Assembly: GCA_964057225.1 (NCBI GenBank)
Contig: OZ059897.1
Location: forward strand, 17,422,001-17,486,000
Length of the DNA: 64,000 bases
DNA from: Auanema rhodensis
Lineage: Eukaryota; Animalia; Nematoda
Direction: 5' to 3'
The notes below the pieces were generated by a model. The model searched no databases. It was not told the DNA's origin and was given only the letters and a program-made list of their open reading frames with translations. Shown here piece by piece: positions 1-63,927 of this stretch; within the stretch, counting starts at the first letter, position 1, and each line of letters opens with the position of its first letter. The position numbers were made by a program, and so were the translations under genes.

Positions 1-3000
1 AATAAAAATTTGTTTTTAGACTAATATAGACATGGGGAATCTAATTTTGAAAATCGCATCTCTTTATCTTTCACGGGAAGCGAGTTTCATACAAGTGCAC
101 ATCACGTGTACATTTAATTAGCATAAATTGAAGTTCACGTGAATTTCAAAGTCATGGTTACCATGCACCAATATGAATAAGAATTTGTTTTTAGACTAAT
201 GTGGACATGGGGAATCTAATTTTGAAAACCGCATCTCTTTATCTTTCACGGGAAGCGAGATACATACCGAGTGCACATCGCGTGTACATTTAATTAGCAT
301 AAATTGAAGTTCACGTAAATATCAAAGTCATGGTTACCATGCACTAATATCAATGAAAATTTGGTTTTAGACTAATATGGATATGGGGAATCTAATTTTG
401 AAAACCGCATCTTTTTATCTTTCACGGGAAGCGAGTTTCATACCAAGTGCACATCACGTGTACATTTAATTAGCATAAATTGAAGTTCACGTAAATATCA
501 AAGTCATGGTTACTATGCACCAATATCAATAAAAATTTGTTTTTAGACTAATATAGACATGGGGAATCGAATTTTGAAAATCGCATCTCTTTATCTTTCA
601 CGGGAAGCGAGTTTCATACCAAGTGCACATCACGTGTACATTTAATTAGCATAAATTAAAGTTCACGTAAATTTCGAAGTCATGGTTACCATGCACTAAT
701 ATCAATGAAAATTCGGTTTTAGACTAATATGGATATGGGGAATCTAATTTTGAAAACCGCATCTTTTCATCTTTCACGGGAAGCGAGATACATACCGAGT
801 GCACATCGCGTGTACATTTAATTAGCATAAATTAAAGTTCACGTAAATTTCAAAGTCATGTTTACCATGCATCAATATCAATAAAATATTGTTTTTAGAC
901 TAATATGGACTTGGGGAATCTAATTTTGAAAACCGCATCTCTTTATCTTTCACGGGAAGCGAGTTTCATACAAGTGCACATCACGTGTACATTTAATTAG
1001 CATAAATTAAAGTTCACGTAAATTTCGAAGTCATGGTTACCATGCACTAATATCAATGAAAATTTGGTTTTAGACTAATATGGATATGGGGAATCTAATT
1101 TTGAAAACCGCATCTTTTCATCTTTCACGGGAAGCGAGTTACATACCGAGTGCACATCGCGTGTACATTTAATTAGCATAAATTAAAGTTCACGTAAATT
1201 TCAAAGTCATGGTTACCATGCATCAATATCAATAAAATATTGTTTTTAGACTAATATGGACTTGGGGAATCTAATTTTGAAAACCGCATCTCTTTATCTT
1301 TCACGGGAAGCGAGTTTCATACCAAGTGCACATCACGTGTACATTTAATTAGCATAAATTAAAGTTCACGTAAATTTCAAAATCATGGTTACCATGCACC
1401 AATATCAATAAAAATTTGTTTTCAGACTAATATGGTCATGGGGAATCTAATTTTGAAAACCGCATCTCTTCATCTTTCACGGGAAGCGAGTTACATACCA
1501 AGTACACATCACGTGTACATTTAATTAGCATAAATTAAAGTTCACGTAAATTTCAAAGTCATGGTTACCATGCACCAATATCAATAAAAAATTGTTTTTA
1601 GACTAAGATGGACATGGGGAATCTAATTTTGAAAACCGCATCTCTTTATCTTTCACGGGAAGCGAGTTACATACCAAGGGCACATCACGTGTACATTTAA
1701 TCAGCATAAATTGAAGTTCACGTAAATTTCAAAGTCATGGTTACCATGCACCAATATCAATAAAAATTTGTTTTTAGACTAATATAGACATGGGGAATCT
1801 AATTTTGAAAATCGCATCTCTTTATCTTTCACGGGAAGCGAGTTTCATACAAGTGCACATCACGTGTACATTTAATTAGCATAAATTGAAGTTCACGTGA
1901 ATTTCAAAGTCATGGTTACCATGCACTAATATGAATAAGAATTTGTTTTTAGACTAATGTGGACATGGGGAATCTAATTTTGAAAACCGCATCTCTTTAT
2001 CTTTCACGGGAAGCGAGATACATACCGAGTGCACATCGCGTGTACATTTAATTAGCATAAATTAAAGTTCACGTAAATTTCAAAGTCATGGTTACCATGC
2101 ATCAATATCAATAAAATATTGTTTTTAGACTAATATGGACTTGGGGAATCTAATTTTGAAAACCGCATCTCTTTATCTTTCACGGGAAGCGAGATACATA
2201 CCGAGTGCACATCGCGTGTACATTTAATTAGCATAAATTAAAGTTCACGTAAATTTCAAAGTCATGGTTGCCATGCACCAATATCAATAAAAATTTGTTT
2301 TCAGACTAATATGGACATGGGGAATCTAATTTTGAAAACCGCATCTTTTTATCTTTCACGGGAAGCGAGTTTCATACCAAGTGCACATCACGTGTACATT
2401 TAATTAGCATAAATTGAAGTTCACGTAAATATCAAAGTCATGGTTACCATGCACTAATATCAATGAAAATTTGTTTTTAGACTAATATGGTTATGGGGAA
2501 TCTAATTTTGAAAACCGCATCTTTTCATCTTTCACGGGAAGCGAGATACATACCGAGTGCACATCGCGTGTACATTTAATTAGCATAAATTAAAGTTCAC
2601 GTAAATTTCGAAGTCATGGTTACCATGCACTAATATCAATAAAAAATTGTTTTTAGACTAATATGGACTTGGGGAATCTAATTTTGAAAACCGCATCTTT
2701 TCATCTTTCACGGGAAGCGAGATACATACCGAGTGCACATCGCGTGTACATTTAATTAGCATAAATTAAAGTTCACGTAAATTTCAAAGTCATGTTTACC
2801 ATGCATCAATATCAATAAAATATTGTTTTTAGACTAATATGGACTTGGGGAATCTAATATTGAAAACCGCATCTCTTTATCTTTCACGGGAAGCGAGTTT
2901 CATACAAGTGCACATCACGTGTACATTTAATTAGCATAAATTAAAGTTCACGTAAATTTCGAAGTCATGGTTACCATGCACTAATATCAATGAAAATTTG

Positions 3001-6000
3001 GTTTTAGACTAATATGGATATGGGGAATCTAATTTTGAAAACCGCATCTTTTCATCTTTCACGGGAAGCGAGTTACATACCGAGTGCACATCGCGTGTAC
3101 ATTTAATTAGCATAAATTAAAGTTCACGTAAATTTCAAAGTCATGGTTACCATGCATCAATATCAATAAAATATTGTTTTTAGACTAATATGGACTTGGG
3201 GAATCTAATTTTGAAAACCGCATCTCTTTATCTTTCACGGGAAGCGAGTTTCATACCAAGTGCACATCACGTGTACATTTAATTAGCATAAATTAAAGTT
3301 CACGTAAATTTCAAAATCATGGTTACCATGCACCAATATCAATAAAAATTTGTTTTCAGACTAATATGGTCATGGGGAATCTAATTTTGAAAACCGCATC
3401 TCTTCATCTTTCACGGGAAGCGAGTTACATACCAAGTACACATCACGTGTACATTTAATTAGCATAAATTAAAGTTCACGTAAATTTCAAAGTCATGGTT
3501 ACCATGCACCAATATCAATAAAAAATTGTTTTTAGACTAAGATGGACATGGGGAATCTAATTTTGAAAACCGCATCTCTTTATCTTTCACGGGAAGCGAG
3601 TTACATACCAAGGGCACATCACGTGTACATTTAATCAGCATAAATTGAAGTTCACGTAAATTTCAAAGTCATGGTTACCATGCACCAATATCAATAAAAA
3701 TTTGTTTTTAGACTAATATAGACATGGGGAATCTAATTTTGAAAATCGCATCTCTTTATCTTTCACGGGAAGCGAGTTTCATACAAGTGCACATCACGTG
3801 TACATTTAATTAGCATAAATTGAAGTTCACGTGAATTTCAAAGTCATGGTTACCATGCACCAATATGAATAAGAATTTGTTTTTAGACTAATGTGGACAT
3901 GGGGAATCTAATTTTGAAAACCGCATCTCTTTATCTTTCACGGGAAGCGAGATACATACCGAGTGCACATCGCGTGTACATTTAATTAGCATAAATTGAA
4001 GTTCACGTAAATATCAAAGTCATGGTTACCATGCACTAATATCAATGAAAATTTGGTTTTAGACTAATATGGATATGGGGAATCTAATTTTGAAAACCGC
4101 ATCTTTTTATCTTTCACGGGAAGCGAGTTTCATACCAAGTGCACATCACGTGTACATTTAATTAGCATAAATTGAAGTTCACGTAAATATCAAAGTCATG
4201 GTTACCATGCACTAATAACAATGAAAATTTGGTTTTAGACTAATATGGATATGGGGAATCTAATTTTGAAAACCGCATCTTTTCATCTTTCACGGGAAGC
4301 GAGATACATACCGAGTGCACATCGCGTGTACATTTAATTAGCATAAATTAAAGTTCACGTAAATTTCAAAGTCATGGTTACCATGCATCAATATCAATAA
4401 AATATTGTTTTTAGACTAATATGGACTTGGGGAATCTAATTTTGAAAACCGCATCTCTTTATCTTTCACGGGAAGCGAGTTTCATACCAAGTGCACATCA
4501 CGTGTACATTTAATTAGCATAAATTAAAGTTCACGTAAATTTCAAAATCATGGTTACCATGCACCAATATCAATAAAAATTTGTTTTCAGACTAATATGG
4601 TCATGGGGAATCTAATTTTGAAAACCGCATCTCTTTATCTTTCACGGGAAGCGAGTTTCATACCAAGTGCACATCACGTGTACATTTAATTAGCATAAAT
4701 TAAAGTTCACGTAAATTTCAAAATCATGGTTACCATGCACCAATATCAATAAAAATTTGTTTTCAGACTAATATGGTCATGGGGAATCTAATTTTGAAAA
4801 CCGCATCTCTTCATCTTTCACGGGAAGCGAGTTACATACCAAGTACACATCACGTGTACATTTAATTAGCATAAATTAAAGTTCACGTAAATTTCAAAGT
4901 CATGGTTACCATGCACCAATATCAATAAAAAATTGTTTTTAGACTAAGATGGACATGGGGAATCTAATTTTGAAAACCGCATCTCTTTATCTTTCACGGG
5001 AAGCGAGTTACATACCAAGGGCACATCACGTGTACATTTAATCAGCATAAATTGAAGTTCACGTAAATTTCAAAGTCATGGTTACCATGCACCAATATCA
5101 ATAAAAATTTGTTTTTAGACTAATATAGACATGGGGAATCTAATTTTGAAAATCGCATCTCTTTATCTTTCACGGGAAGCGAGTTTCATACAAGTGCACA
5201 TCACGTGTACATTTAATTAGCATAAATTGAAGTTCACGTGAATTTCAAAGTCATGGTTACCATGCACTAATATGAATAAGAATTTGTTTTTAGACTAATG
5301 TGGACATGGGGAATCTAATTTTGAAAACCGCATCTCTTTATCTTTCACGGGAAGCGAGATACATACCGAGTGCACATCGCGTGTACATTTAATTAGCATA
5401 AATTAAAGTTCACGTAAATTTCAAAGTCATGGTTACCATGCATCAATATCAATAAAATATTGTTTTTAGACTAATATGGACTTGGGGAATCTAATTTTGA
5501 AAACCGCATCTCTTTATCTTTCACGGGAAGCGAGATACATACCGAGTGCACATCGCGTGTACATTTAATTAGCATAAATTAAAGTTCACGTAAATTTCAA
5601 AGTCATGGTTGCCATGCACCAATATCAATAAAAATTTGTTTTCAGACTAATATGGACATGGGGAATCTAATTTTGAAAACCGCATCTTTTTATCTTTCAC
5701 GGGAAGCGAGTTTCATACCAAGTGCACATCACGTGTACATTTAATTAGCATAAATTGAAGTTCACGTAAATATCAAAGTCATGGTTACCATGCACTAATA
5801 TCAATGAAAATTTGTTTTTAGACTAATATGGTTATGGGGAATCTAATTTTGAAAACCGCATCTTTTCATCTTTCACGGGAAGCGAGATACATACCGAGTG
5901 CACATCGCGTGTACATTTAATTAGCATAAATTAAAGTTCACGTAAATTTCGAAGTCATGGTTACCATGCACTAATATCAATAAAAAATTGTTTTTAGACT

Positions 6001-8510
6001 AATATGGACTTGGGGAATCTAATTTTGAAAACCGCATCTTTTCATCTTTCACGGGAAGCGAGATACATACCGAGTGCACATCGCGTGTACATTTAATTAG
6101 CATAAATTAAAGTTCACGTAAATTTCAAAGTCATGTTTACCATGCATCAATATCAATAAAATATTGTTTTTAGACTAATATGGACTTGGGGAATCTAATA
6201 TTGAAAACCGCATCTCTTTATCTTTCACGGGAAGCGAGTTTCATACAAGTGCACATCACGTGTACATTTAATTAGCATAAATTAAAGTTCACGTAAATTT
6301 CGAAGTCATGGTTACCATGCACTAATATCAATGAAAATTTGGTTTTAGACTAATATGGATATGGGGAATCTAATTTTGAAAACCGCATCTTTTCATCTTT
6401 CACGGGAAGCGAGTTACATACCGAGTGCACATCGCGTGTACATTTAATTAGCATAAATTAAAGTTCACGTAAATTTCAAAGTCATGGTTACCATGCATCA
6501 ATATCAATAAAATATTGTTTTTAGACTAATATGGACTTGGGGAATCTAATTTTGAAAACCGCATCTCTTTATCTTTCACGGGAAGCGAGTTTCATACCAA
6601 GTGCACATCACGTGTACATTTAATTAGCATAAATTAAAGTTCACGTAAATTTCAAAATCATGGTTACCATGCACCAATATCAATAAAAATTTGTTTTCAG
6701 ACTAATATGGTCATGGGGAATCTAATTTTGAAAACCGCATCTCTTCATCTTTCACGGGAAGCGAGTTACATACCAAGTACACATCACGTGTACATTTAAT
6801 TAGCATAAATTAAAGTTCACGTAAATTTCAAAGTCATGGTTACCATGCACCAATATCAATAAAAAATTGTTTTTAGACTAAGATGGACATGGGGAATCTA
6901 ATTTTGAAAACCGCATCTCTTTATCTTTCACGGGAAGCGAGTTACATACCAAGGGCACATCACGTGTACATTTAATCAGCATAAATTGAAGTTCACGTAA
7001 ATTTCAAAGTCATGGTTACCATGCACCAATATCAATAAAAATTTGTTTTTAGACTAATATAGACATGGGGAATCTAATTTTGAAAATCGCATCTCTTTAT
7101 CTTTCACGGGAAGCGAGTTTCATACAAGTGCACATCACGTGTACATTTAATTAGCATAAATTGAAGTTCACGTGAATTTCAAAGTCATGGTTACCATGCA
7201 CCAATATGAATAAGAATTTGTTTTTAGACTAATGTGGACATGGGGAATCTAATTTTGAAAACCGCATCTCTTTATCTTTCACGGGAAGCGAGATACATAC
7301 CGAGTGCACATCGCGTGTACATTTAATTAGCATAAATTGAAGTTCACGTAAATATCAAAGTCATGGTTACCATGCACTAATATCAATGAAAATTTGGTTT
7401 TAGACTAATATGGATATGGGGAATCTAATTTTGAAAACCGCATCTTTTTATCTTTCACGGGAAGCGAGTTTCATACCAAGTGCACATCACGTGTACATTT
7501 AATTAGCATAAATTGAAGTTCACGTAAATATCAAAGTCATGGTTACCATGCACTAATAACAATGAAAATTTGGTTTTAGACTAATATGGATATGGGGAAT
7601 CTAATTTTGAAAACCGCATCTTTTCATCTTTCACGGGAAGCGAGATACATACCGAGTGCACATCGCGTGTACATTTAATTAGCATAAATTAAAGTTCACG
7701 TAAATTTCAAAGTCATGGTTACCATGCATCAATATCAATAAAATATTGTTTTTAGACTAATATGGACTTGGGGAATCTAATTTTGAAAACCGCATCTCTT
7801 TATCTTTCACGGGAAGCGAGTTTCATACCAAGTGCACATCGCGTGTACATTTAATTAGCATAAATTAAAGTTCACGTAAATTTAAAATCATGGTTACCAT
7901 GCACCAATATCAATAAAAATCTGTTTTTAGACTAATATGGACTTGGGGAATCTAATTTTGAAAACCGCATCTCTTTATCTTTCACGGGAAGCGAGTTTCA
8001 TACCAAGTGCACATCACGTGTACATTTAATTAGCATAAATTAAAGTTCACGTAAATTTCAAAGTCATGGTTACCATGCACCAATATCAATAAAAATCTGT
8101 TTTTAGACTAATATGGACTTGGGGAATCTAATTTTGAAAACCGCATCTCTTTATCTTTCACGGGAAGCGAGTTTCATACCAAGTGCACATCACGTGTACA
8201 TTTAATTAGCATAAATTAAAGTTCACGTAAATTTCAAAGTCATGGTTACCATGCACTAATATCAATGAAAAATTGTTTTTAGACTAAGATGGACATGAGG
8301 AATCTAATTTTGAAAACCGCATCTCTTTATCTTTCACGGGAAGCGAGTTACATACCAAGGGCACATCACGTGTACATTTAATTAGCATAAATTAAAGTTC
8401 ACGTAAATTTCAAAGTCATGGTTACCATGCATCAATATCAATAAAATATTGTTTTTAGACTAATATGGACTTGGGGAATCTAATTTTGAAAACCGCATCT
8501 CTTTATCTTT
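1..8510 (+). repeat. Satellite A tandem array, 176-bp monomer (175-bp variant), ~48 copies, continues beyond left edge
   Basis: Motif tgtttttagactaat...ggggaatctaattttgaaaaccgcatc...tttcacgggaagcgag...catggttaccatg recurs every 175-176 bp, with a limited set of recurrent SNP variants. Confidence 0.98.
1265..7840 (+). repeat. 19-monomer (3341 bp) higher-order duplication within Satellite A
   Basis: Rare variants recur exactly 3341 bp apart: cacgtGaatttc 1899/5240 and 3833/7174; aatctaatAt 2851/6192; cactaataAc 4210/7551. Confidence 0.88.
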
Positions 8511-9056
8511 GTTTTTAGATTCGTTTTTTCAAGGCAAAGACGATGGACAATGTTATTCAACGAAAAAATTAATTCTTCAGGGTGAAAATCGAGGATATAA
8601 GTGTGAACTTATATCAGTTGATATCTCGGTGCATTTTCAAGCTAGCGCAAATCTGATAACACAGATCGACGCAGCTTAGAAATCCGCATCGAATGCACTA
8701 TACTACATTGAGAAACGCTTAATACAAAAATTAGTTATGATCGTTTGAAAAATGATGCATTAGTGTATGTTGAGTTTCCATGTACACTCAACATTGCTTC
8801 CAAAAACATTTTGACAAAAATTTTTTCGAAAAATTTCAAGATAATTTAGCAAAAAGTAGATGTTTTTAGATTCCTTTTTTCAAGGCAAAGACGATGGACA
8901 ATGTTATTCAACGAAAAAATTAATTCTTCAGGGTGAAAATCGAGGATATAAGTGTGAACTTATATCAGTTGATATCTCGGTGCATTTTTAAGCTAGCGCA
9001 AATCTGATAACACAGATCGACGTAGCTTAAAAATCCGCATCGAATGCACTATACTA
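8511..9056 (+). repeat. Island of Satellite B (~1.55 monomers) between opposed Satellite A arrays
   Basis: Sequence switches at ctttatcttt|gtttttagattcg to the 351-bp family and runs to ...gaatgcactatacta. Confidence 0.95.
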
Positions 9057-9124
9057 TACACTAATGCATCATTTTTCAAACGATCATAACTAATTTTTGT
9101 ATTAAGCGTTTCTCAATGTAGTAT
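9056..9124 (-). repeat. 69-bp inverted fragment of Satellite B
   Basis: atacactaatgcatc...tctcaatgtagtat is the reverse complement of SatB atactacattgaga...gatgcattagtgtat. Confidence 0.95.
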
Positions 9125-12100
9125 GGTAACCATGATTTTAAATTTACGTGAACTTTAATTTATGCTAATTAAATGTACACGTGATGTGTACTTGGTATGT
9201 ATCTCGCTTCCCGTGAAAGATAAAGAGATGCGGTTTTCAAAATTAGATTCCTCATGTCCATCTTAGTCTAAAAACAATTTTTCATTGATATTAGTGCATG
9301 GTAACCATGACTTTGAAATTTACGTGAACTTTAATTTATGCTAATTAAATGTACACGCGATGTGCACTTGGTATGAAACTCGCTTCCCGTGAAAGATAAA
9401 GAGATGCGGTTTTCAAAATTAGATTCCCCAAGTCCATATTAGTCTAAAAACAATATTTTATTGATATTGATGCATGGTAACCATGACTTTGAAATTTACG
9501 TGAACTTTAATTTATGCTAATTAAATGTACACGTGATGTGCCCTTGGTATGTAACTCGCTTCCCGTGAAAGATAAAGAGATGCGGTTTTCAAAATTAGAT
9601 TCCTCATGTCCATCTTAGTCTAAAAACAATTTTTCATTGATATTAGTGCATGGTAAACATGACTTTGAAATTTACGTGAACTTTAATTTATGCTAATTAA
9701 ATGTACACGCGATGTGCACTCGGTATGTATCTCGCTTCCCGTGAAAGATGAAAAGATGCGGTTTTCAAAATTAGATTCCCCAAGTCCATATTAGTCTAAA
9801 AACAATATTTTATTGATATTGATGCATGGTAACCATGACTTTGAAATTTACGTGAACTTTAATTTATGCTAATTAAATGTACACGCGATGTGCACTCGGT
9901 ATGTATCTCGCTTCCCGTGAAAGATGAAAAGATGCGGTTTTCAAAATTAGATTCCCCATATCCATATTAGTCTAAAACCAAATTTTCATTGATATTAGTG
10001 CATGGTAACCATGACTTTGATATTTACGTGAACTTCAATTTATGCTAATTAAATGTACACGTGATGTGCACTTGGTATGAAACTCGCTTCTCGTGAAAGA
10101 TAAAAAGATGCGGTTTTCAAAATTAGATTCCCCATATCCATATTAGTCTAAAACCAAATTTTCATTGATATTAGTGCATGGTAACCATGACTTTGATATT
10201 TACGTGAACTTCAATTTATGCTAATTAAATGTACACGCGATGTGCACTCGGTATGTATCTCGCTTCCCGTGAAAGATAAAGAGATGCGGTTTTCAAAATT
10301 AGATTCCCCATGTCCACATTAAGCTAAAAACAAATTCTTATTCATATTGGTGCATGGTAACCATGACTTTGAAATTCACGTGAACTTCAATTTATGCTAA
10401 TTAAATGTACACGTGATGTGCACTTGTATGAAACTCGCTTCCCGTGAAAGATAAAGAGATGCGATTTTCAAAATTAGATTCCCCATGTCTATATTAGTCT
10501 AAAAACAAATTTTTATTGATATTGGTGCATGGTAACCATGACTTTGAAATTTACGTGAACTTCAATTTATGCTGATTAAATGTACACGTGATGTGCCCTT
10601 GGTATGTAACTCGCTTCCCGTGAAAGATAAAGAGATGCGGTTTTCAAAATTAGATTCCCCATGTCCATCTTAGTCTAAAAACAATTTTTTATTGATATTG
10701 GTGCATGGTAACCATGACTTTGAAATTTACGTGAACTTTAATTTATGCTAATTAAATGTACACGTGATGTGTACTTGGTATGTAACTCGCTTCCCGTGAA
10801 AGATAAAGAGATGCGGTTTTCAAAATTAGATTCCTCATGTCCATCTTAGTCTAAAAACAATTTTTCATTGATATTAGTGCATGGTAAACATGACTTTGAA
10901 ATTTACGTGAACTTTAATTTATGCTAATTAAATGTACACGTGATGTGCACTTGGTATGAAACTCGCTTCCCGTGAAAGATAAAGAGATGCGGTTTTCAAA
11001 ATTAGATTCCCCAAGTCCATATTAGTCTAAAAACAATATTTTATTGATATTGATGCATGGTAACCATGACTTTGAAATTTACGTGAACTTTAATTTATGC
11101 TAATTAAATGTACACGCGATGTGCACTCGGTATGTAACTCGCTTCCCGTGAAAGATGAAAAGATGCGGTTTTCAAAATTAGATTCCCCATATCCATATTA
11201 GTCTAAAACCAAATTTTCATTGATATTAGTGCATGGTAACCATGACTTCGAAATTTACGTGAACTTTAATTTATGCTAATTAAATGTACACGTGATGTGC
11301 ACTTGTATGAAACTCGCTTCCCGTGAAAGATAAAGAGATGCGGTTTTCAATATTAGATTCCCCAAGTCCATATTAGTCTAAAAACAATATTTTATTGATA
11401 TTGATGCATGGTAAACATGACTTTGAAATTTACGTGAACTTTAATTTATGCTAATTAAATGTACACGCGATGTGCACTCGGTATGTATCTCGCTTCCCGT
11501 GAAAGATGAAAAGATGCGGTTTTCAAAATTAGATTCCCCAAGTCCATATTAGTCTAAAAACAATATTTTATTGATATTAGTGCATGGTAACCATGACTTC
11601 GAAATTTACGTGAACTTTAATTTATGCTAATTAAATGTACACGCGATGTGCACTTGGTATGAAACTCGCTTCCCGTGAAAGATAAAAAGATGCGGTTTTC
11701 AAAATTAGATTCCCCATGTCCATATTAGTCTGAAAACAAATTTTTATTGATATTGGTGCATGGCAACCATGACTTTGAAATTTACGTGAACTTTAATTTA
11801 TGCTAATTAAATGTACACGCGATGTGCACTCGGTATGTATCTCGCTTCCCGTGAAAGATAAAGAGATGCGGTTTTCAAAATTAGATTCCCCAAGTCCATA
11901 TTAGTCTAAAAACAATATTTTATTGATATTGATGCATGGTAACCATGACTTTGAAATTTACGTGAACTTTAATTTATGCTAATTAAATGTACACGCGATG
12001 TGCACTCGGTATGTATCTCGCTTCCCGTGAAAGATGAAAAGATGCGGTTTTCAAAATTAGATTCCCCATATCCATATTAGTCTAAAACCAAATTTTCATT

Positions 12101-14166
12101 GATATTAGTGCATGGTAACCATGACTTTGAAATTTACGTGAACTTTAATTTATGCTAATTAAATGTACACGTGATGTGTACTTGGTATGTAACTCGCTTC
12201 CCGTGAAAGATGAAGAGATGCGGTTTTCAAAATTAGATTCCCCATGTCCATATTAGTCTGAAAACAAATTTTTATTGATATTGGTGCATGGCAACCATGA
12301 CTTTGAAATTTACGTGAACTTTAATTTATGCTAATTAAATGTACACGCGATGTGCACTCGGTATGTATCTCGCTTCCCGTGAAAGATAAAGAGATGCGGT
12401 TTTCAAAATTAGATTCCCCAAGTCCATATTAGTCTAAAAACAATATTTTATTGATATTGATGCATGGTAACCATGACTTTGAAATTTACGTGAACTTTAA
12501 TTTATGCTAATTAAATGTACACGCGATGTGCACTCGGTATGTATCTCGCTTCCCGTGAAAGATGAAAAGATGCGGTTTTCAAAATTAGATTCCCCATATC
12601 CATATTAGTCTAAAACCAAATTTTCATTGATATTAGTGCATGGTAACCATGACTTTGAAATTTACGTGAACTTTAATTTATGCTAATTAAATGTACACGT
12701 GATGTGTACTTGGTATGTAACTCGCTTCCCGTGAAAGATGAAGAGATGCGGTTTTCAAAATTAGATTCCCCATGACCATATTAGTCTGAAAACAAATTTT
12801 TATTGATATTGGTGCATGGTAACCATGATTTTGAAATTTACGTGAACTTTAATTTATGCTAATTAAATGTACACGTGATGTGCACTTGGTATGAAACTCG
12901 CTTCCCGTGAAAGATAAAGAGATGCGGTTTTCAAAATTAGATTCCCCAAGTCCATATTAGTCTAAAAACAATATTTTATTGATATTGATGCATGGTAACC
13001 ATGACTTTGAAATTTACGTGAACTTTAATTTATGCTAATTAAATGTACACGCGATGTGCACTCGGTATGTAACTCGCTTCCCGTGAAAGATGAAAAGATG
13101 CGGTTTTCAAAATTAGATTCCCCATATCCATATTAGTCTAAAACCAAATTTTCATTGATATTAGTGCATGGTAACCATGACTTCGAAATTTACGTGAACT
13201 TTAATTTATGCTAATTAAATGTACACGTGATGTGCACTTGTATGAAACTCGCTTCCCGTGAAAGATAAAGAGATGCGGTTTTCAATATTAGATTCCCCAA
13301 GTCCATATTAGTCTAAAAACAATATTTTATTGATATTGATGCATGGTAAACATGACTTTGAAATTTACGTGAACTTTAATTTATGCTAATTAAATGTACA
13401 CGCGATGTGCACTCGGTATGTATCTCGCTTTCCGTGAAAGATGAAAAGATGCGGTTTTCAAAATTAGATTCCCCAAGTCCATATTAGTCTAAAAACAATA
13501 TTTTATTGATATTAGTGCATGGTAACCATGACTTCGAAATTTACGTGAACTTTAATTTATGCTAATTAAATGTACACGCGATGTGCACTTGGTATGAAAC
13601 TCGCTTCCCGTGAAAGATAAAAAGATGCGGTTTTCAAAATTAGATTCCCCATGTCCATATTAGTCTGAAAACAAATTTTTATTGATATTGGTGCATGGCA
13701 ACCATGACTTTGAAATTTACGTGAACTTTAATTTATGCTAATTAAATGTACACGCGATGTGCACTCGGTATGTATCTCGCTTCCCGTGAAAGATAAAGAG
13801 ATGCGGTTTTCAAAATTAGATTCCCCAAGTCCATATTAGTCTAAAAACAATATTTTATTGATATTGATGCATGGTAACCATGACTTTGAAATTTACGTGA
13901 ACTTTAATTTATGCTAATTAAATGTACACGCGATGTGCACTCGGTATGTATCTCGCTTCCCGTGAAAGATGAAAAGATGCGGTTTTCAAAATTAGATTCC
14001 CCATGTCCACATTAGTCTAAAAACAAATTCTTATTCATATTGGTGCATGGTAACCATGACTTTGAAATTCACGTGAACTTCAATTTATGCTAATTAAATG
14101 TACACGTGATGTGCACTTGTATGAAACTCGCTTCCCGTGAAAGATAAAGAGATGCGATTTTCAAAA
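9123..14166 (-). repeat. Satellite A array in inverted orientation, ~28-29 monomers
   Basis: Reverse-complement monomers (ctcgcttcccgtgaaa, gatgcggttttcaaaattagattcccc) with 176-bp period; an 11-mer recurrence is marked by ttcaaTattag at 11351/13286. Confidence 0.98.
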
Positions 14167-56100: not shown

Positions 56101-57442
56101 AGATGTTTTTAGATTCCTTTTTTCAAGGCAAAGACGATGGACAATGTTATTCAACGAAAAAAACAATTCTTCAGGGTGAAAATCGAGGATATAAGTGTGA
56201 ACTTATATCAGTTGATATATCGGTGCATTTTTAAGCTAGCGCAAATCTGATAACACAGATCGACGCAGCTTACAAATCCGCATCGAATGCACTATACTAC
56301 ATTGAGAAACGCTTAATACAAAAATTAGTTATGATCGTTTGAAAAATGATGCATTAGTGTATGTTGAGTTTCCATGTACACTCAACATTGCTTCCAAAAA
56401 CATTTTGACAAAAATTTTTTCGAAAAATTTCAAAATAATTTAGCAAAAAGTAGATGTTTTTAGATTCCTTTTTTCAAGGCAAAGACGATGGACAATGTTA
56501 TTCAACGAAAAAAACAATTCTTCAGGGTGAAAATCGAGGATATAAGTGTGAACTTATATCAGTTGATATATCGGTGCATTTTTAAGCTAGCGCAAATCTG
56601 ATAACACAGATCGACGCAGCTTAAAAATCCGCATCGAATGCACTATACTACATTGAGAAACGCTTAATACAAAAATTAGTTATGATCGTTTGAAAAATGA
56701 TGCATTAGTGTATGTTGAGTTTCCATGTACACTCAACATTGCTTCCAAAAACATTTTGACAAAAATTTTTTCGAAAAATTTCAAAATAATTTAGCAAAAA
56801 GTAGATGTTTTTAGATTCCTTTTTTCAAGGCAAAGACGATGGACAATGTTATTCAACGAAAAAATTTATTCTTCAGGGTGAAAATCGAGGATATAAGTGT
56901 GAACTTATATCAGTTGATATATCGGTGCATTTTTAAGCTAGCGCAAATCTGATAACACAGATCGACGCAGCTTAAAAATCCGCATCGAATGCACTATACT
57001 ACATTGAGAAACGCTTAATACAAAAATTAGTTATGATCGTTTGAAAAATGATGCATTAGTGTATGTTGAGTTTCCATGTACACTCAACATTGCTTCCAAA
57101 AACATTTTGACAAAAATTTTTTCGAAAAATTTCAAGATAATTTAGCAAAAAGTAGATGTTTTTAGATTCCTTTTTTCAAGGCAAAGACGATGGACAATGT
57201 TATTCAACGAAAAAAACAATTCTTCAGGGTGAAAATCGAGGATATAAGTGTGAACTTATATCAGTTGATATATCGGTGCATTTTTAAGCTAGCGCAAATC
57301 TGATAACACAGATCGACGCAGCTTACAAATCCGCATCGAATGCACTATACTACATTGAGAAACGCTTAATACAAAAATTAGTTATGATCGTTTGAAAAAT
57401 GATGCATTAGTGTATGTTGAGTTTCCATGTACACTCAACATT
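14167..57442 (+). repeat. Satellite B tandem array, 351-bp monomer, ~123 highly homogeneous copies, with 1053-bp (3-mer) and 1755-bp (5-mer) higher-order repeats in the core
   Basis: The 351-bp period is visible throughout. Spacings of the variant-marking 65-aa ORF are multiples of 351 (351, 702, 1053), apart from one 1-bp deletion near 37092. Confidence 0.99.
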
Positions 57443-57600
57443 AGTAGAGAGCCGTGCAAAATTTACTAACCACGCCCCCAAACAGCTGTCAAAAACATAC
57501 TTTTGGGGGCGTCAGCTGCTAAAAACATACTTTTGGGGTGCGTCAGCTGTCAAAAACATATTTTTGAGCGTCAGCTGTTAAAATCATATTTTGGGATCAT
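57443..57600. repeat. Predicted terminal inverted repeat (outer part) with four 28-31 bp subterminal tandem repeats
   Basis: AGTAGAGAG start; units cagctgtcaaaaacatacttttgggggcgt begin at 57483, 57513, 57544 and 57572. The partner TIR lies outside the window, so the inner boundary is unknown. Confidence 0.8.
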
Positions 57601-57930: not shown

Positions 57931-57977
57931 TTTTGCATGTAGATAATTTTGTTCACCGTACTTGTTATGGGTAATTC

Positions 57978-58071
57978 AATGGAACACATATCGAAAGTTA
58001 ATTCGATAAGAACGATATGAAATACCAAAATTTAATGGAACACATATCGAAGGTTAATTCGATAAGAACGA
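57978..58071. repeat. 38-bp direct repeat x2 (period 56) with internal dyad
   Basis: aatggaacacatatcgaa(a/g)gttaattcgataagaacga at 57978-58015 and 58034-58071; contains tatcgaa-N6-ttcgata. Confidence 0.9.
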
Positions 58072-58724
58072 CATTAAATTATTAATTTTTGAAATTACAA
58101 ATTGTTATTAATTATATTTATTCTAACAAGTAAAAGTTTCAAATTATAATAAAAGATTAGTTTTAAACTTTATTTTACTAATATAACAATACAATAACTA
58201 AATAGAGCACACATTGAAGGTAAATACAATAAGATTAACAAACAGTTGAGCTGACCTCAACGCACATCGATGGTTAATAAACACTAATAACTGCACTGTG
58301 GGGGTCTAAATATAGGATAATCATTTTAACATTTCAAAAGTTTTAGTAATATAATCATTGGTAAATATTAAAGAATGAAATATTTTTTACATATAAAACG
58401 TTGGCAGTCATATGTTTTGTGGTACAATATGGGTTTAAAAGTATACTATGATTAATATATGAGCTATTAAGCAAAGTTTAAAAAGCGTAAATGTTTTACA
58501 GAGATGGCTGTTGTTTATGGCACAAACGGTAAACAATAATGTTTAAAGAGATGTAAAAACTAATTAATATGCAGATTGTTTACAGGTTCAGAGTGCGCCA
58601 ACTGCTGGCAACTGTCGATGAGATGAGTATATCTGCATAAATATGCTGTAAAATCTAATTAATAAGAGAATTTCATCAGCAAACTTGATTGTAACACAAT
58701 GGGTTGTACTTTACAAAAATCTTT

Positions 58725-58763
58725 GTATAAAAGGTTGGCAATTTTGCTACATTTACATTTCAG
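58725..58763 (+). promoter_or_regulatory. Putative core promoter: TATA box GTATAAAAG plus downstream TTTCAG (initiator or trans-splice acceptor)
   Basis: GTATAAAAG at 58725-58733 and tttcag at 58758-58763, upstream of the ATG at 58885. Confidence 0.55.
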
Positions 58764-58884
58764 CTCTGCCGACTATCCGAGGATCCGACGTTTCACCATC
58801 TCCTGCCACTCTTTGCCATTCGCCATAGACTGCTCCTCTCTGCAAGTTTGCCTTATATTTTAGAAAGTTGGATCTTTAGCGGAA

Positions 58885-59471
58885 ATGAAGCGTGCTGTAC
58901 TTGCTGATGTGACAAATGTTGTGCGCAAATCGCCTGAACCTGAAGTACCACGACCACCCACACCAGCTCCAAATTTTACAAGTTTTGGTATGAACCTTAA
59001 CTTGTATTTTTTAAATCTTTAATTTAGATTCACCAATAAAGCAGATGGAGATTCTGAGAGAGAGCACTCCACCAAGGAGTGTATTAATGAGACCAATTTG
59101 TCTCTGCAAAACTTGTAGGGAATCATTGCAGGTTATAGACGAGTATCACTGTTTCAGCCTCTGTATAAAGTGTAGAGGAAGGAATGATGCGTTGGGTCTT
59201 TTGAAGGAATTTCGTCACTATAAGCCCGAAAAGTTCTCTATTAATGTAAGCTTGCATATTTATTTATTTTCAATTTTATCATTTTTTTTAGATGCGCTCT
59301 TATAACACCATGACGTGCAAGCAATTGTTGAACAATATGGGCTATATTGTTATATATGCAGATGAGGCTACTGTAAAGACTTTTGGTTATAAGCAGAATG
59401 TATTCTACTTTAAACTAAGTCCAGAAGCACTCAACCTGAACATGTTTATCCGCTTTGATCCTTCATTTTGA
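58885..59471 (+). CDS. Spliced accessory gene, ~166 aa; exons 58885-58987, 59028-59245, 59292-59471; N-terminal D-box, Pro-rich linker with S/T-P sites, Cys/His cluster
   Basis: GT..AG introns of 40 nt (gtatga..atttag) and 46 nt (gtaagc..ttttag) join three exons in one open frame: MKRAVLADVTNVVRKSPEPEVPRPPTPAPNFTSFDSPIKQMEILRESTPPR...CLCKTC...HCFSLCIKC...FSIN/MRSYNTMTCKQ...FDPSF*. Exon 2 contains the start of track ORF 59045. The 3' structure is uncertain. Confidence 0.7.
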
Positions 59472-59766
59472 CTACAACAAGCACAAATAGTACAATTGGC
59501 GTTTTATTCTTGTTTTGTTATGTGGCATTTTTATATTCTCAGCCGTAACATTTTTTTTCCAGCTCTTGCGAATATCCATCAATGGCTCATCAATTGAGGA
59601 CGAATGATCAACCAACTGGTAAGAATTTGAAAATTTGAATAGTCTACATTTTTTTTTTTCCAGGTTGAATTGTTGTTTGTATTTTGCTGGTTTTTTTATT
59701 GTTACATTATTCGATATATCAAATAAATCATTTATTATAATTACAATTGTTTATAACATTGAAAAA

Positions 59767-60834
59767 TTATACATTTAAATTTTCTGCATCTATCCATTCA
59801 TTAAAGTTGTCGGGATATCCACTCCATTTTACAAATACTTGACGTTTACCGCTTCGAGTACGCTCTTTTAAAACTTTTTCTATATAGTACTTGTTGCTTT
59901 TATTAGTAGCCAAGACAAGTTCAGGTTCGTAGAATATCCCCTTTATACGTTCACCATTATAATCTACAAGTTTATACACGGTTGGGTTTCCGGTTACAAC
60001 CTCATCAATTGTGAATAGCTCCATTGTATATCCAGACTCGTAGCTTTTTTCAAAAGTACGCCTATTTTTGCTTATGCGAACAGTATCACCAATTTTAAAG
60101 CGGCTTTTAACAGCTGATGCATATTCTTCAATGAATATATTTGCTTTAACATCAATGGGCCGCATTTTTATAGAGCGGTTATAAGATTTGTTTATTCCTT
60201 CAACCAAATCATCTAGGATATCAATCCATCGATGATTATTCTTGTAATAGAGATATTTCATCATGCGTGTTTTTAAAGTTCTATTTGCTCGCTCCACCAT
60301 TGCAGCCTTTTGTGGTGAACTTGTAGATCCGTGCAGTATGGCAAACTTTTTGAATAGTTTTTCACAATGACTATTATAAAACTCTGTGCCATTATCAGTA
60401 ATCAACTGAATTGGTATAAAATTCTTGAATAAACTTTCAAATGCACTAGCAACCTCTATACCACCTTTAGTTTTCAAAGGCCTAACATATAACATGCGTG
60501 TATAAACATCAATCATGGTCAACATGTAAGCATAGCCGTCGTTTAATTTTTTATATTTTTGCATATCAACCAAATCTGCTTGCACTGTTAGAAATCGACC
60601 ACATCCTCTAGTCTTTCTAGTCTGCATACGCATTCTGGTTGGTTTATGCCGTGTAAAAGTTTCAGAATCTTGCAAAAAATCATCAACTTGTACCTTTGAA
60701 ATGCCATGTTTTCGTGCTTGCGATAATAAATTCTTGGCTGATGTATATGAAGCTGGGTGTTTTATATCGTAATAAATGCTCGCCAAAATATCATTTCCAT
60801 AATCTAATGTAGAACCTTTTACGACCTTGGCCAT
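59767..60834 (-). CDS. Polinton retroviral-like DDE integrase with C-terminal chromodomain
   Basis: Catalytic motifs QADLVDM, ITDNGTEF and MVERANRTLK; Polinton-type N-terminus IYYD..HPASY; FKIGDTVRISK; chromodomain YYIEKVL...VKWSGYP...NEWI. First in-frame ATG is at 60834 (track start 60885 is TTG). Confidence 0.96.
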   Translation of the reverse strand: MAKVVKGSTLDYGNDILASIYYDIKHPASYTSAKNLLSQARKHGISKVQVDDFLQDSETFTRHKPTRMRMQTRKTRGCGRFLTVQADLVDMQKYKKLNDGYAYMLTMIDVYTRMLYVRPLKTKGGIEVASAFESLFKNFIPIQLITDNGTEFYNSHCEKLFKKFAILHGSTSSPQKAAMVERANRTLKTRMMKYLYYKNNHRWIDILDDLVEGINKSYNRSIKMRPIDVKANIFIEEYASAVKSRFKIGDTVRISKNRRTFEKSYESGYTMELFTIDEVVTGNPTVYKLVDYNGERIKGIFYEPELVLATNKSNKYYIEKVLKERTRSGKRQVFVKWSGYPDNFNEWIDAENLNV

Positions 60835-61507
60835 TCTGTGAGTCTCCTTCTTGTGGTGTGTAATATGATTCGGCGGCAGTATCAAAAGTCTTTGACCTTT
60901 TACTTTTGAGTGTACGAACCGGTGATGGTGAATATCTAATAACAGCTTTACGATGACGAGGCGTTCTAGGTAATATAGTAGAGTCCAAGTCTGTAACAGC
61001 CGGTTCAGCTCTAGTTACAACGTCAACTGAATCATTGTCAGCCGACTCTCTTCTAGTTTGTTTCTTGTTAGAACTTGGTACGCCTTTACTGGCTAAAAAC
61101 TTTGACAAAACTGAAAATCCATTGGGCTCCGTTTTTGTTTTATCCAATACAAAATCTAAAATTTTTGTAATATTCGTGTTTGGTACAGCCTCATTATTAA
61201 TCACAAGTTGGTTATTCTTGTTTGTGCGCACCTCTGGAAATTTCTCCCACAAATTGTTATACTTTCTTGGCAACTTGTATTCTGGCAATAGAGGTGGATC
61301 AGCATTTTCCACTTGTACTGATATGGGCGCATCTATACTTTCTCTATAGTTTTTGAGACGAGCAATCAAGTCTTCGTATAGTTCAGCCTTTTTATAGTCG
61401 GGTATAGCTCTATTTTCTCGTAAAAGCTTGAGCTCTGCATCAAACTTGTCTATATTAACTGTTTCCTCGTCGACAGGAATTAGTCGATATTTATGGTTGA
61501 GCTTCAT
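60791..61507 (-). CDS. Uncharacterised Polinton protein (238 aa), basic low-complexity C-terminus; possibly virion core/DNA-binding
   Basis: Long ATG-initiated ORF in the tightly packed ATPase-INT cassette; K/R-rich tail with a QNGQG motif. Function is inference only. Confidence 0.75.
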   Translation of the reverse strand: MKLNHKYRLIPVDEETVNIDKFDAELKLLRENRAIPDYKKAELYEDLIARLKNYRESIDAPISVQVENADPPLLPEYKLPRKYNNLWEKFPEVRTNKNNQLVINNEAVPNTNITKILDFVLDKTKTEPNGFSVLSKFLASKGVPSSNKKQTRRESADNDSVDVVTRAEPAVTDLDSTILPRTPRHRKAVIRYSPSPVRTLKSKRSKTFDTAAESYYTPQEGDSQNGQGRKRFYIRLWK

Positions 61508-61812
61508 GATTTAAAACCAAAATAGGCAATACCACATGTAACTATTGTTTTCAATTGTTTGTGTGAAAGCGTTTCCAATAATGATTTAGCCTTTTCCGGT
61601 GTGCGTATCAAAGCTATTTGACGTAATAATGAAGATATGGGCAAGAGGGTTTTATATTCCTTGTTAGTTAAAAGAAAATTATTATTTTTCACAATATTAA
61701 ATACAATTTCAACAATAATTTCAATTTGTGCAAAAGAAAATGAGGAAACAGAACAAGGAGTTTTGGCGCAAGAAGACAAAAAGTTGAAATTTGACAAAAT
61801 ACGACCACTCAT
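61504..61812 (-). CDS. Small Polinton protein (102 aa) downstream of ATPase
   Basis: ATG 12 nt after the ATPase stop; its stop overlaps the next ATG (ATGA). The pattern IVEIVFNIVKNN..L....K.L.....LLRQIA resembles, from memory, the small helical protein found next to Polinton ATPases. Confidence 0.7.
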   Translation of the reverse strand: MSGRILSNFNFLSSCAKTPCSVSSFSFAQIEIIVEIVFNIVKNNNFLLTNKEYKTLLPISSLLRQIALIRTPEKAKSLLETLSHKQLKTIVTCGIAYFGFKS

Positions 61813-61824
61813 TGAACAAGCACT

Positions 61825-62472
61825 TTAAACACTAAACACATTTCTGGCAACATAAACAATAGGGTTCTCCGCTGTTATATCAGATAGTATACGCTGCTTC
61901 TCACTTGTTAAAGGATGATTGTCAATCAGTAAATGACTATAGGGAGTAGACATTGCATCATCATACGCCTCTAGAGCATTTTTGAAACGTGGCCCAAATA
62001 ATTGCTGCAGACAATTACGTATTTGTAATATATCTGAATGACTTTTCATCAGTATTATATATGTACTATTGATTCGACTGGTCCTGTCCAGTTGAAATGC
62101 CGCTTGCACAAGATTAAACACTGCCAAATTCCAGTGATGAGCCCATACTGTAAAAATGTTGTTGAGTAATTCCTTTGCTGCTTTATTCGATGAAAAAAAG
62201 TTCATCAAATCATCCAGCACTAGTATAGTATTTACTCCCTTTTGTTCTTTTATCAAATCAGGATCAGGAGGCCCTTGAATAATTATTAAACGCTCATCAT
62301 TTATTGGTACACCTGACGATGACCCACATTGACTAAACCAGAATATTCTATCAATGGGGACGTTGAAAAACTTTTCAGTATTTTCACATATGTGCTTTAT
62401 GAGGGTTGTTTTACCGCATTGGGTAGCACCTATTACAGTTGTCTGACTGGGTAGTTTGAAGCTGAAAACCAT
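61825..62472 (-). CDS. A32/FtsK-HerA-type DNA packaging ATPase
   Basis: Walker A GATQCGKTT, Walker B ILVLDD, FTVWAHHWN..VFNLVQ and C-terminal PYSHLLID. First ATG is at 62472 (track start 62505 is TTG). Confidence 0.95.
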   Translation of the reverse strand: MVFSFKLPSQTTVIGATQCGKTTLIKHICENTEKFFNVPIDRIFWFSQCGSSSGVPINDERLIIIQGPPDPDLIKEQKGVNTILVLDDLMNFFSSNKAAKELLNNIFTVWAHHWNLAVFNLVQAAFQLDRTSRINSTYIILMKSHSDILQIRNCLQQLFGPRFKNALEAYDDAMSTPYSHLLIDNHPLTSEKQRILSDITAENPIVYVARNVFSV

Positions 62473-62551: not shown

Positions 62552-63409
62552 ATGGATGATTTTTACATTACTCTTCCATCATCAGTTGACTCTGAAAAAA
62601 GTAATACATCATCAGTGTTTCTTACCAGATTACCTGAAACACTAAGGCTACGCAATAATAGGTATTGTATTGGGCTGACAGACATCATTTTTCCTTGTTC
62701 TATATTAAATGTTCAAAAAGATTTATCTTATACACTACGTTTTTCCAATAGAAAATTTATTCTACACTTGCCTAAAGGCAACTATGCAAATGGTGATGAA
62801 ATAATACGCGGAATCAATGCTGGAAGAGAATCATTTATCGCCAACAATACAAAGCCTCTTGGAGCTGAGGAAGAAGCACGTATAAAAAGTTTAATAGATA
62901 AAGATGAAGATGTAAAAAAATGGTATAATAATCGCCAGGCTGAGGCTAAGCTAGTGGAGGAAATGCTCGCAGATGCCACATTTCAGTTTAACAAAACATT
63001 GCAGCGCATAGAGTTTGTAACAAGCAAGCGACTATTAATGAATGCAACGCTTGGTGATGATTTTGCATATTTTCTTGGTTTTGAAAATAAAAACATCAAC
63101 GATACAATAATAGCCAGGCGTCCCATTGATTTTTCAAATAACATTAATACAATGTATATATATTGTGATATTGTAGAATATTCCATTCTTGGTAATGTGA
63201 AAGCTAATTTACTTGCATGTTTACCTGTACCACCTCCTACTGAATTTGGTAAAATGATTGCCAAAACATTTAATCCTATTCGTTATGTACCAATCACTAG
63301 ACAAACACTCGATACCATACGTATTGAAATTTTAGATGAATTTGGTCGTCCTATGCAATTTAATTATGGTTCTACAGTTGTTACATTGCATGTTAAAAAT
63401 ATGAAATAA
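62552..63409 (+). CDS. Polinton minor capsid protein (penton, single jelly-roll)
   Basis: Characteristic termini FYITLPS..NTSSVF.TRLP..L.L...Y.IGLTDIIFP and MYIYCDIVE..ILGNV.ANLL...RYVPI....DTIRIEILDEFGRPMQF..G.TVVTLH. Confidence 0.9.
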   Translation: MDDFYITLPSSVDSEKSNTSSVFLTRLPETLRLRNNRYCIGLTDIIFPCSILNVQKDLSYTLRFSNRKFILHLPKGNYANGDEIIRGINAGRESFIANNTKPLGAEEEARIKSLIDKDEDVKKWYNNRQAEAKLVEEMLADATFQFNKTLQRIEFVTSKRLLMNATLGDDFAYFLGFENKNINDTIIARRPIDFSNNINTMYIYCDIVEYSILGNVKANLLACLPVPPPTEFGKMIAKTFNPIRYVPITRQTLDTIRIEILDEFGRPMQFNYGSTVVTLHVKNMK

Positions 63410-63419
63410 ACGTTTTATT
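63405..63419. terminator. Back-to-back polyadenylation signals overlapping two convergent stop codons
   Basis: AATAAA (+, 63405-63410) contains the minor capsid TAA; TTTATT (63414-63419) contains the zinc-finger gene TAA on the minus strand. Confidence 0.6.
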
Positions 63420-63879
63420 CAACAGTTATACAATACCACATTTTTATTTTCGAAGGTTTAAAAGATAGTTTAGGGCAGTTTTGTTTGTCGCTCGGCTCGT
63501 GTTGTGAATGTTCTCCGTCACTATTGCTGCGGCATCTTTTTGATTGGGTTGAATGTACAAACTCCTCAGCTTTTTCAAAGGGTTTGCTGGTATCATTTCC
63601 ATCACCATCTTCACCATTCGTTCCATTATTATTATGAATACGCCGAATATGACGCTCACAATTGAATCTTGTTCCAAAAGTTTCACTACAATGAGGGCAC
63701 AAACGTCTACGAACACCATCCAAATGTCCATATTTTTGAATAAAGTCAGCATTGCTGATATAATTGTTACATATGGGTTGAATCCCTGCATGTCTTTTCA
63801 AAACGTGATCACTAAAATGCTTGGTTGAAGAAAATATTTCCTTGCATGTACCACAATATTTGTTACATAAAAGTTCCAT
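63415..63879 (-). CDS. C2H2 zinc-finger protein (two fingers, ~154 aa)
   Basis: CGTCKEIFSSTKHFSDHVLKRH and CPHCSETFGTRFNCERHIRRIH fit C-x2-C-x3-F-x8-H-x4-H. First ATG is at 63879 (track start 63909 is TTG). Confidence 0.85.
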   Translation of the reverse strand: MELLCNKYCGTCKEIFSSTKHFSDHVLKRHAGIQPICNNYISNADFIQKYGHLDGVRRRLCPHCSETFGTRFNCERHIRRIHNNNGTNGEDGDGNDTSKPFEKAEEFVHSTQSKRCRSNSDGEHSQHEPSDKQNCPKLSFKPSKIKMWYCITVE

Positions 63880-63917: not shown

Positions 63918-63927
63918 CTTTTATATA
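63918..63927 (-). promoter_or_regulatory. Putative TATA box of zinc-finger gene
   Basis: Minus strand reads TATATAAAAG about 40 nt upstream of the ATG at 63879. Confidence 0.5.

Follow-up and report, generated by a model that had tools for sequence, protein, structure and literature searches.

A spliced cargo gene with a candidate APC/C degron in a Maverick element of the nematode Auanema rhodensis

The window analysed here, a 64,000-nt stretch of Auanema rhodensis DNA, consisted of satellite DNA over its first 57.4 kb. A 351-bp satellite occupied positions 14278-57442 (~43 kb), with 125 copies counted that were mostly 97–100% alike, and it was preceded by another repeat array, present in both orientations, at positions 1-14166. 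The 351-bp unit was interrupted at position 57442, and Maverick sequence began with AGTAG at position 57443. The left end of this element (57443..57600) carried 28–30-bp subterminal repeats and is probably the start of a terminal inverted repeat, the partner of which would lie beyond the window. We also observed a 56-bp tandem duplication (57973-58079), located after a very AT-rich stretch within the left end of the element. The window covers ~6.5 kb of the Maverick and, of its two junctions, the left one is in view.

From position 59767 on, six ATG-initiated ORFs of at least 100 aa occupied the minus strand and a single one the plus strand; this part of the element encoded an integrase and an ATPase, along with a conserved ORF of 285 aa, a C2H2 ORF, and two ORFs without a name. 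The integrase (59767..60834, minus strand) matched the rve and chromodomain families of Pfam (E-values of 1e-8 and 3e-8, respectively) and was convergent with the spliced gene described below. Of its 447 relatives, the best with a name belonged to Auanema (69%, across 59% of the query) and to Caenorhabditis (42–46%). For the packaging-type ATPase (61825..62472, minus strand), 26 of the 91 integrase-bearing loci contained a relative, and the conserved Maverick ORF of 285 aa (62552..63409, plus strand), which is presumably the minor capsid protein, had relatives in 39 of the 91. The reading frames of the integrase and the ATPase were unbroken. The stretch from position 57443 onwards represents the left portion of a Maverick.

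Between the ATPase and the integrase, two further minus-strand ORFs were located at 60791-61507 (238 aa) and 61504-61812 (102 aa). Neither had a Pfam match; weak matches (best E-values of 0.002 and 0.024) were found upstream of integrases elsewhere, and the two are probably fast-changing genes of the core region. The accessory ORF at 63415-63879 (minus strand) encoded two C2H2-like fingers, with a Pfam E-value of 4e-5 that fell below the cut-off. It had its own TATA box, TATAAAAG, at position 63925 on the minus strand, resembling the box at 58726, and was overlapped by a 115-aa frame; splicing may occur here too. In a distant Maverick-like locus (L010, ~3590-4230), a C2H2 ORF and an ORF that we take, by its motif, to be BIR/IAP-like were located upstream of the integrase.

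The spliced gene occupied the plus strand between the left end of the element and the integrase. Joining exons at 58885-58987, 59028-59245, and 59292-59471 across two GT-AG introns, 40 and 46 nt long, produced an open frame of 166 aa. The exons, introns, and codon count put forward in an earlier note on this DNA were thereby reproduced, as was its TATA box, a TATAAAA found at 58726..58732. RNA cover began, at its 5′-most, ~40 nt downstream of this box (58770), which would serve as the promoter. The string TATAAAA-N-GTTGGCA was present twice, at 58392 and 58726, 334 nt apart, and none of the four runs examined gave RNA cover over the upstream copy. The transcribed leader (58770..58884) was covered from 58770 in the run labelled X14 and from 58820 in X12 and X13, and was devoid of an upstream ATG; the single ATG within 58730-58887 was that at 58885.

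Coding exon 1 (58885..58987) encodes the string RAVLADVTN, a D-box, at residues 3–11 (58891-58917) in a Pro-rich context, with S16-P and T26-P. It is followed by intron 1 (58988..59027; 40 nt, GT..AG, 80% AT) and by exon 2a (59028..59114), which carries the full CDK sites S36 and T48 and the residues C59 and C61. A 43-nt segment (59115..59157) separates exon 2a from exon 2b (59158..59245), which provides the second CxxC (C80, C83) of the long form and the stop codon (59166-59168) of a short one. Next come intron 3 (59246..59291; 46 nt, GTAAG..AG, 83% AT), which was the second intron of the earlier note, and the last coding exon (59292..59471), 59 aa long and predicted to form a small α/β domain. 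An intron of 45 nt (59619..59663, GTAAG..CAG) lies in the 3′ UTR, and an AATAAA at 59722..59727, just beyond the 3′-most RNA cover (59710), is a candidate poly(A) signal.

Public runs containing the gene stretch or part of it numbered 16, and four were examined for joints. These four gave eight contigs with a depth of 3.6–7.2; three runs of one study (X12–X14) were guessed to be RNA, and one run of another study (X16) was recorded as RNA. The last (share 0.09) covered only positions 59425-59572 and was junction-free, and the junction data come from one study only, with a depth of 4–7 and a guessed RNA label. Assembled contigs also drop rare splice forms. Eleven DNA-like runs, from three studies and with five organism labels that are coded, contained 0.48–0.81 of the words of the gene stretch.

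X12 and X14 both lacked intron 1, and X13 had a loose end that jumped from 58987 to 59028. The program placed the 40-nt joint at 58980/59021, which would give AG..TT ends; we read it as 58987/59028 because the end of the exon resembles the end of the intron and the loose end in X13 begins at 59028. The 46-nt intron was skipped (59245/59292) in X12 and X13. Both junctions that the earlier note had predicted were thus present in RNA-like contigs, together with two GT-AG introns that it had missed, 59115-59157 (X12, X13) and 59619-59663 (one contig of X12). Removal of the former takes away C64, H75, and C76, shifts the frame, and leads to the stop at 59166-59168, giving a product of 66 aa. All three skips in the coding region were found on a single contig of X12 (record 1), which represents the 66-aa form, and X13 agreed with it. 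In X14, intron 1 was out, and the 43-nt segment was read unspliced to 59143, where the contig ends. The complete 166-aa path was found in none of the eight contigs. The 166-aa model of the earlier note therefore holds as to its frame and its two introns, but its Cys/His stretch was spliced out in two of the three runs, and its whole path was present in no contig examined.

The gene is transcribed and spliced, with four GT-AG introns. Mismatch counts at 58981-58987 suggested that the transcribed copies differ by one base from the window near the end of exon 1. Because of this one-base difference, the RNA likely derives from another, near-identical copy or strain. The splice joints might conceivably stem from a processed DNA copy. 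None of the four runs covered the integrase part at 59798-61000; the runs had been picked via the spliced gene, so this gives no ranking of expression.

The 43-nt segment is an optional intron within coding sequence, exitron-like, with GT..TTTCAG ends. TTTCAG-like acceptors are the nematode intron consensus, and the introns here are 40–46 nt long; these features, like the named relatives of the integrase, point to a rhabditid nematode as host. The AT content of the segment (25/43, 58%) was like that of coding exons (60%, p = 0.87) and differed from that of the other three introns (78–83%, p = 0.008). The segment was stop-free in the long frame only, and its donor (GTAGGG) was weak. When retained, it completes a CxxC-x15-CxxC pair by adding the fourth Cys, and the Cys/His stretch of the earlier note carried CxxC motifs in the 166-aa frame, at residues 61–64 and 80–83. 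Adenovirus E1A likewise has two splice forms, only one of which contains a zinc finger, and the internal splice that would remove a zinc module is alike in the two genes.

A diverged contig from X14 covered 59322-59487 with 24 differences, of which the 17 away from the contig ends were listed. In the frame of the last exon, nine of these fell on third, seven on first, and one on second codon positions, giving eight synonymous and six non-synonymous codons with no stop. The other two frames of the same contig had 13 and 16 non-synonymous codons and contained a stop. Random placement of the differences would be expected to yield 11.2 non-synonymous codons (p = 0.0013; p = 0.0054 for the synonymous ones). 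By eye, the 25-nt loose 5′ end of the contig stays in frame with four of eight residues kept, the 3′ end departs 16 nt past the stop, and one Cys of the last exon is lost. The contig spans the last exon, and both the D-box and the CxxC pair lie outside its range. A long product is under selection: the 66-aa form leaves the last exon untranslated, so that selection on this exon calls for a long form in at least some copies. We infer that the 166-aa form, with the 43-nt segment retained, is the working product. The read-through in X14 could represent half-processed pre-mRNA.

The D-box directly follows the first ATG, is flanked by K2 and K15, has the two full CDK sites nearby, and is kept in both splice forms. 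As the earlier note had claimed, it is a strong match to the consensus: it conforms to RxxLxx[VIL]xN and shares six of nine residues with the Hsl1-derived peptide. The same number is identical to the tested consensus peptide RAPLGDVSN (PMC12401543 for both peptides). The 11-residue extended consensus has a Pro before and an Asn after the motif, with V7 and N9 preferred (PMC3690534, in the available text). The preferred Val at position 7 and Asn at position 9 are present here, and the Pro and Asn flanks are absent. The Pro-rich N-terminal context suggests that the motif is exposed. The CDK sites of the earlier note also stood, as full sites at S36 and T48 and minimal S/T-P sites at S16, T26, and S150. 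A KEN box was absent from every exon peptide, an LXCXE Rb-binding motif was absent from the exon peptides of the gene, and an ABBA-like pattern was located inside the predicted folded last exon.

In 200,000 residue shuffles, the strict pattern RxxLxD[ILV]xN occurred at a frequency of 0.0004, RxxLxx[ILV]xN at 0.012, RxxLxxxxN at 0.059, at least two full CDK sites at 0.023, and at least two CxxC at 0.021; the patterns were picked post hoc from this very sequence, so the true surprise is smaller than these p values. It is increased by the position of the D-box at the extreme N-terminus, among CDK sites. In a six-frame translation of 91 other Maverick-like loci (1,091,006 residues), the strict motif was met once, and RxxLxxxxN had 54 matches in 208,067 stop-free residues. 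The D-box is a credible candidate for an APC/C degron.

Searches for homologues used the exons singly. In Pfam, the three exon peptides matched no family at E-values up to 1, and a sequence search of the PDB gave nothing under E 0.2. A resemblance to zinc fingers of the nuclear-receptor, GATA, and E1A kinds found no support in Pfam. Two large protein libraries were queried with exon 2 and the last exon. The word-indexed search of longer proteins returned two candidates for the last exon and one for exon 2, none of which was scored, and exon 2, run in full through HMMER against 1.84 billion representatives, had one match, rejected as a translated tandem repeat. Exact look-up of the ORFs matched none of nine, and scans of metagenome and viral contigs with the exons or the ATPase gave no confirmed match. 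When the exon peptides were compared by tblastn with the 91 integrase-bearing loci (35–43% integrase identity), no match was obtained at E < 0.001; the best (E 0.053) was located in the BIR-like ORF of L010 and was rejected. For exon 1, the PDB search and the comparison with the 91 loci yielded no homologue. Because single short exons are weak queries, the absence of homologues in these searches is weak evidence. On these searches, the gene is an orphan of no detectable family.

Exon 2 and the last exon were also folded one by one, without an alignment. Five models were made of the last exon; the top one was a small α/β structure with a mean pLDDT of 81.6, the other four reaching 55–66, with a pTM of 0.49. 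Foldseek found no match to it at E 0.001 in the PDB or BFVD, and VIA found none at Z 2. The exon 2 model (pLDDT 58) was unstructured up to residue 18 of the piece and helical beyond, and no zinc site was seen in it. A fold search with this model gave no match, the best hits (Z up to 3.1) being unrelated helical chains.

The location of the gene agrees with what has been described for nematode Mavericks, in which the 2–5-kb stretch that separates the left repeat from the integrase is a cargo slot marked by intron-bearing genes, the core genes are intronless, and the cargo regions are fast-changing, host-derived DNA (bioRxiv 10.1101/2022.07.12.499685, in the available text). The slot here, which starts at the left end (57443) and reaches to the integrase, is ~2.3 kb including the repeat, and the gene within it has introns. 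The earlier note was right that an intron-bearing gene stands beside an intronless core; this arrangement is not unusual, being that of the described cargo slot. The cargo described comprises wasp proteases and krma kinases, with an N-terminal ubiquitin-like module proposed to set abundance (bioRxiv 10.1101/2022.07.12.499685). Our gene resembles them in its slot, in its introns next to an intronless core, and in joining an N-terminal module, proposed to control abundance, to a C-terminal domain. It differs in size, with 166 or 66 aa compared to 325 and 430 aa, and a 166-aa protein with a Pro-rich N-terminus is too small for both of their domains. Pfam found in it no ubiquitin-like, protease, or kinase domain, and its candidate control module is a linear APC/C degron instead of a ubiquitin-like one.

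With APC/C substrates and the Hsl1 D-box, the protein shares R1, L4, D6, V7, T8, and N9 of the motif, an N-terminal Pro-rich context, CDK sites, and nearby lysines (PMC12401543, PMC3690534). Unlike those substrates, it is encoded by a mobile element, mismatches the 11-residue flanks, and has no KEN box. The comparison with Emi1 and Acm1 holds in outline, as a D-box is combined with a Cys-rich stretch (PMC11579458, PMC3690534). Emi1 acts via its D-box, a zinc-binding region (ZBR), a C-terminal LRRL tail, and a KEN box (PMC11579458); the reading of the present protein as an Emi1-type decoy, raised by the earlier note, sits poorly with a chain that ends in DPSF and has neither of the last two elements. 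In addition, its D-box is at the extreme N-terminus, and its Cys stretch can be spliced out. As to a ZBR, the retained form offers only two CxxC and one His-Cys, with no Pfam match and a low-confidence exon 2 model.

The ‘Oncoid’ genes of Polintons and adintoviruses, defined by LXCXE, combine cell-cycle motifs with paired CxxC (PMC8502044). The similarity lies in a small accessory protein of a Polinton-type element that has cell-cycle linear motifs beside paired CxxC, here C61-C64 and C80-C83 in the long form only. The differences are the missing LXCXE and a motif that points to the APC/C and not to Rb. The 153-aa MULE-associated protein (MAAP) came into consideration on account of its size.

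Two readings of the D-box compete with that of a substrate degron. In one of them, the 166-aa protein or the 66-aa peptide would bind the co-activator undestroyed and delay mitotic exit or G1 entry, in the manner of Acm1 or Emi1. The resemblance to the high-affinity D-box of Hsl1 speaks for such a role, as D-boxes of this kind underlie the pseudosubstrate action of Acm1 (PMC12401543), and so does the short form, seen in two of the three runs, which is little more than a degron with CDK sites. The long form joins the D-box to Cys ligands, Emi1-like in outline (PMC11579458), and several DNA viruses are described as targeting the APC/C. Set against this, known pseudosubstrates combine several binding motifs (PMC11579458, PMC3690534), whereas here the KEN box and a C-terminal LRRL or IR tail are absent, no exon gave a Pfam match to a zinc region, and the ABBA-like pattern is located in the last exon, which is predicted to fold. 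The lysines beside the D-box are also those that a substrate would have, and we consider a decoy quite improbable. The other reading, which we regard as unlikely although it deserves serious weight, takes the D-box-like string for a product of chance or a leftover of a captured host fragment, the gene being kept for its C-terminal module with no relevance to the cell cycle. RxxL motifs without degron activity exist (PMC12401543), looser D-box patterns are common by the shuffle and match counts given above, and selection was demonstrated for the last exon only. Moreover, cargo regions consist of fast-changing, host-derived DNA (bioRxiv 10.1101/2022.07.12.499685), and no such gene was found in the 91 distant Maverick-like loci. 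It is the rarity of a strict N-terminal match (p = 0.0004) together with two full CDK sites (p = 0.023) that argues against a chance origin.

The splicing data allow for a different architecture as well, to which we assign a similarly small probability as to a decoy. The segment 59115-59157 would then be an ordinary intron and the long product would arise via another splice of intron 1, or else this copy would yield mostly truncated RNA and would itself be decaying or silenced by host splicing. If intron 1 were spliced to an in-frame acceptor after 59041 or 59044, the product would be 147 or 146 aa long, would have a single CxxC, and would lack any full CDK site. The segment does have a perfect TTTCAG acceptor and a typical length and was removed in two of the three runs, and with all introns out there remains an ATG-less open frame of 117 codons, from 59029 to the stop of the last exon. 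Nevertheless, the 59028 acceptor was used by all three runs crossing intron 1, the segment combines a weak GTAGGG donor with exon-like composition, and the adjoining integrase and ATPase frames are uninterrupted, which does not suggest a decaying copy.

The explanation that we prefer, with a confidence that stops somewhat short of even, is that of a cargo gene in a nematode-type Maverick whose protein would likely be a substrate of the APC/C; a role as a decoy, while conceivable, lacks support. The presumably unstructured N-terminal tail, with the D-box and CDK sites, would confine the C-terminal module to S, G2, and early mitosis. The D-box would bind the host co-activators Cdc20 and Cdh1, and the protein would be destroyed at mitotic exit, which may time the activity of the element to dividing germ-line or embryonic cells. 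The C-terminal module is predicted to fold and likely binds zinc, and it would be the working part of the protein; our best guess is that it would be an adaptor, stabilised by zinc, for some protein of the host or of the element. Removal of the 43-nt segment, which would lower or divert output, gives the 66-aa peptide, in which the D-box and CDK sites remain and the module is lost, possibly as a down-regulating form or a by-product. Such a layout of degron plus domain fits the slot, since an N-terminal ubiquitin-like module, proposed to set abundance, is found in the cargo proteases and kinases already known. A bolder proposal, which we hold to be rather doubtful, is a Maverick-encoded regulator that engages the APC/C and is switched by splicing from a protein with a zinc module to a bare peptide of D-box and CDK sites, so that the element ties its activity to the cell cycle of the host germ line or holds host cells before mitotic exit; it would be an E1A-like early gene aimed at the APC/C and a third family of nematode Maverick cargo.

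The cargo slot, intron-bearing cargo, and the Polinton Oncoids were known already. What is new is an orphan cargo gene with a candidate APC/C degron and an unexpected internal splice. Among the matches listed in our literature search, mostly of non-subscription literature, none reported by its title or abstract opening a Maverick or transposon gene with an APC/C degron. The non-core ORFs of published elements were left as ‘uncharacterized’ in the available text of PMC10748475, and the present gene may be among the ORFs so labelled on the element maps. Three short motifs of the protein were absent from the available part of the supplement to that paper, whose tables hold coordinates and not sequences.

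The gene bears on how Mavericks time their activity in animal hosts, and the nematode cargo families described so far are a protease and a kinase. Should the motif prove inert, the gene would be merely another orphan of the cargo slot. As a transcribed orphan cargo gene with a strong predicted APC/C degron, it offers a direct and cheap test of whether the element is coupled to the cell cycle of its host.
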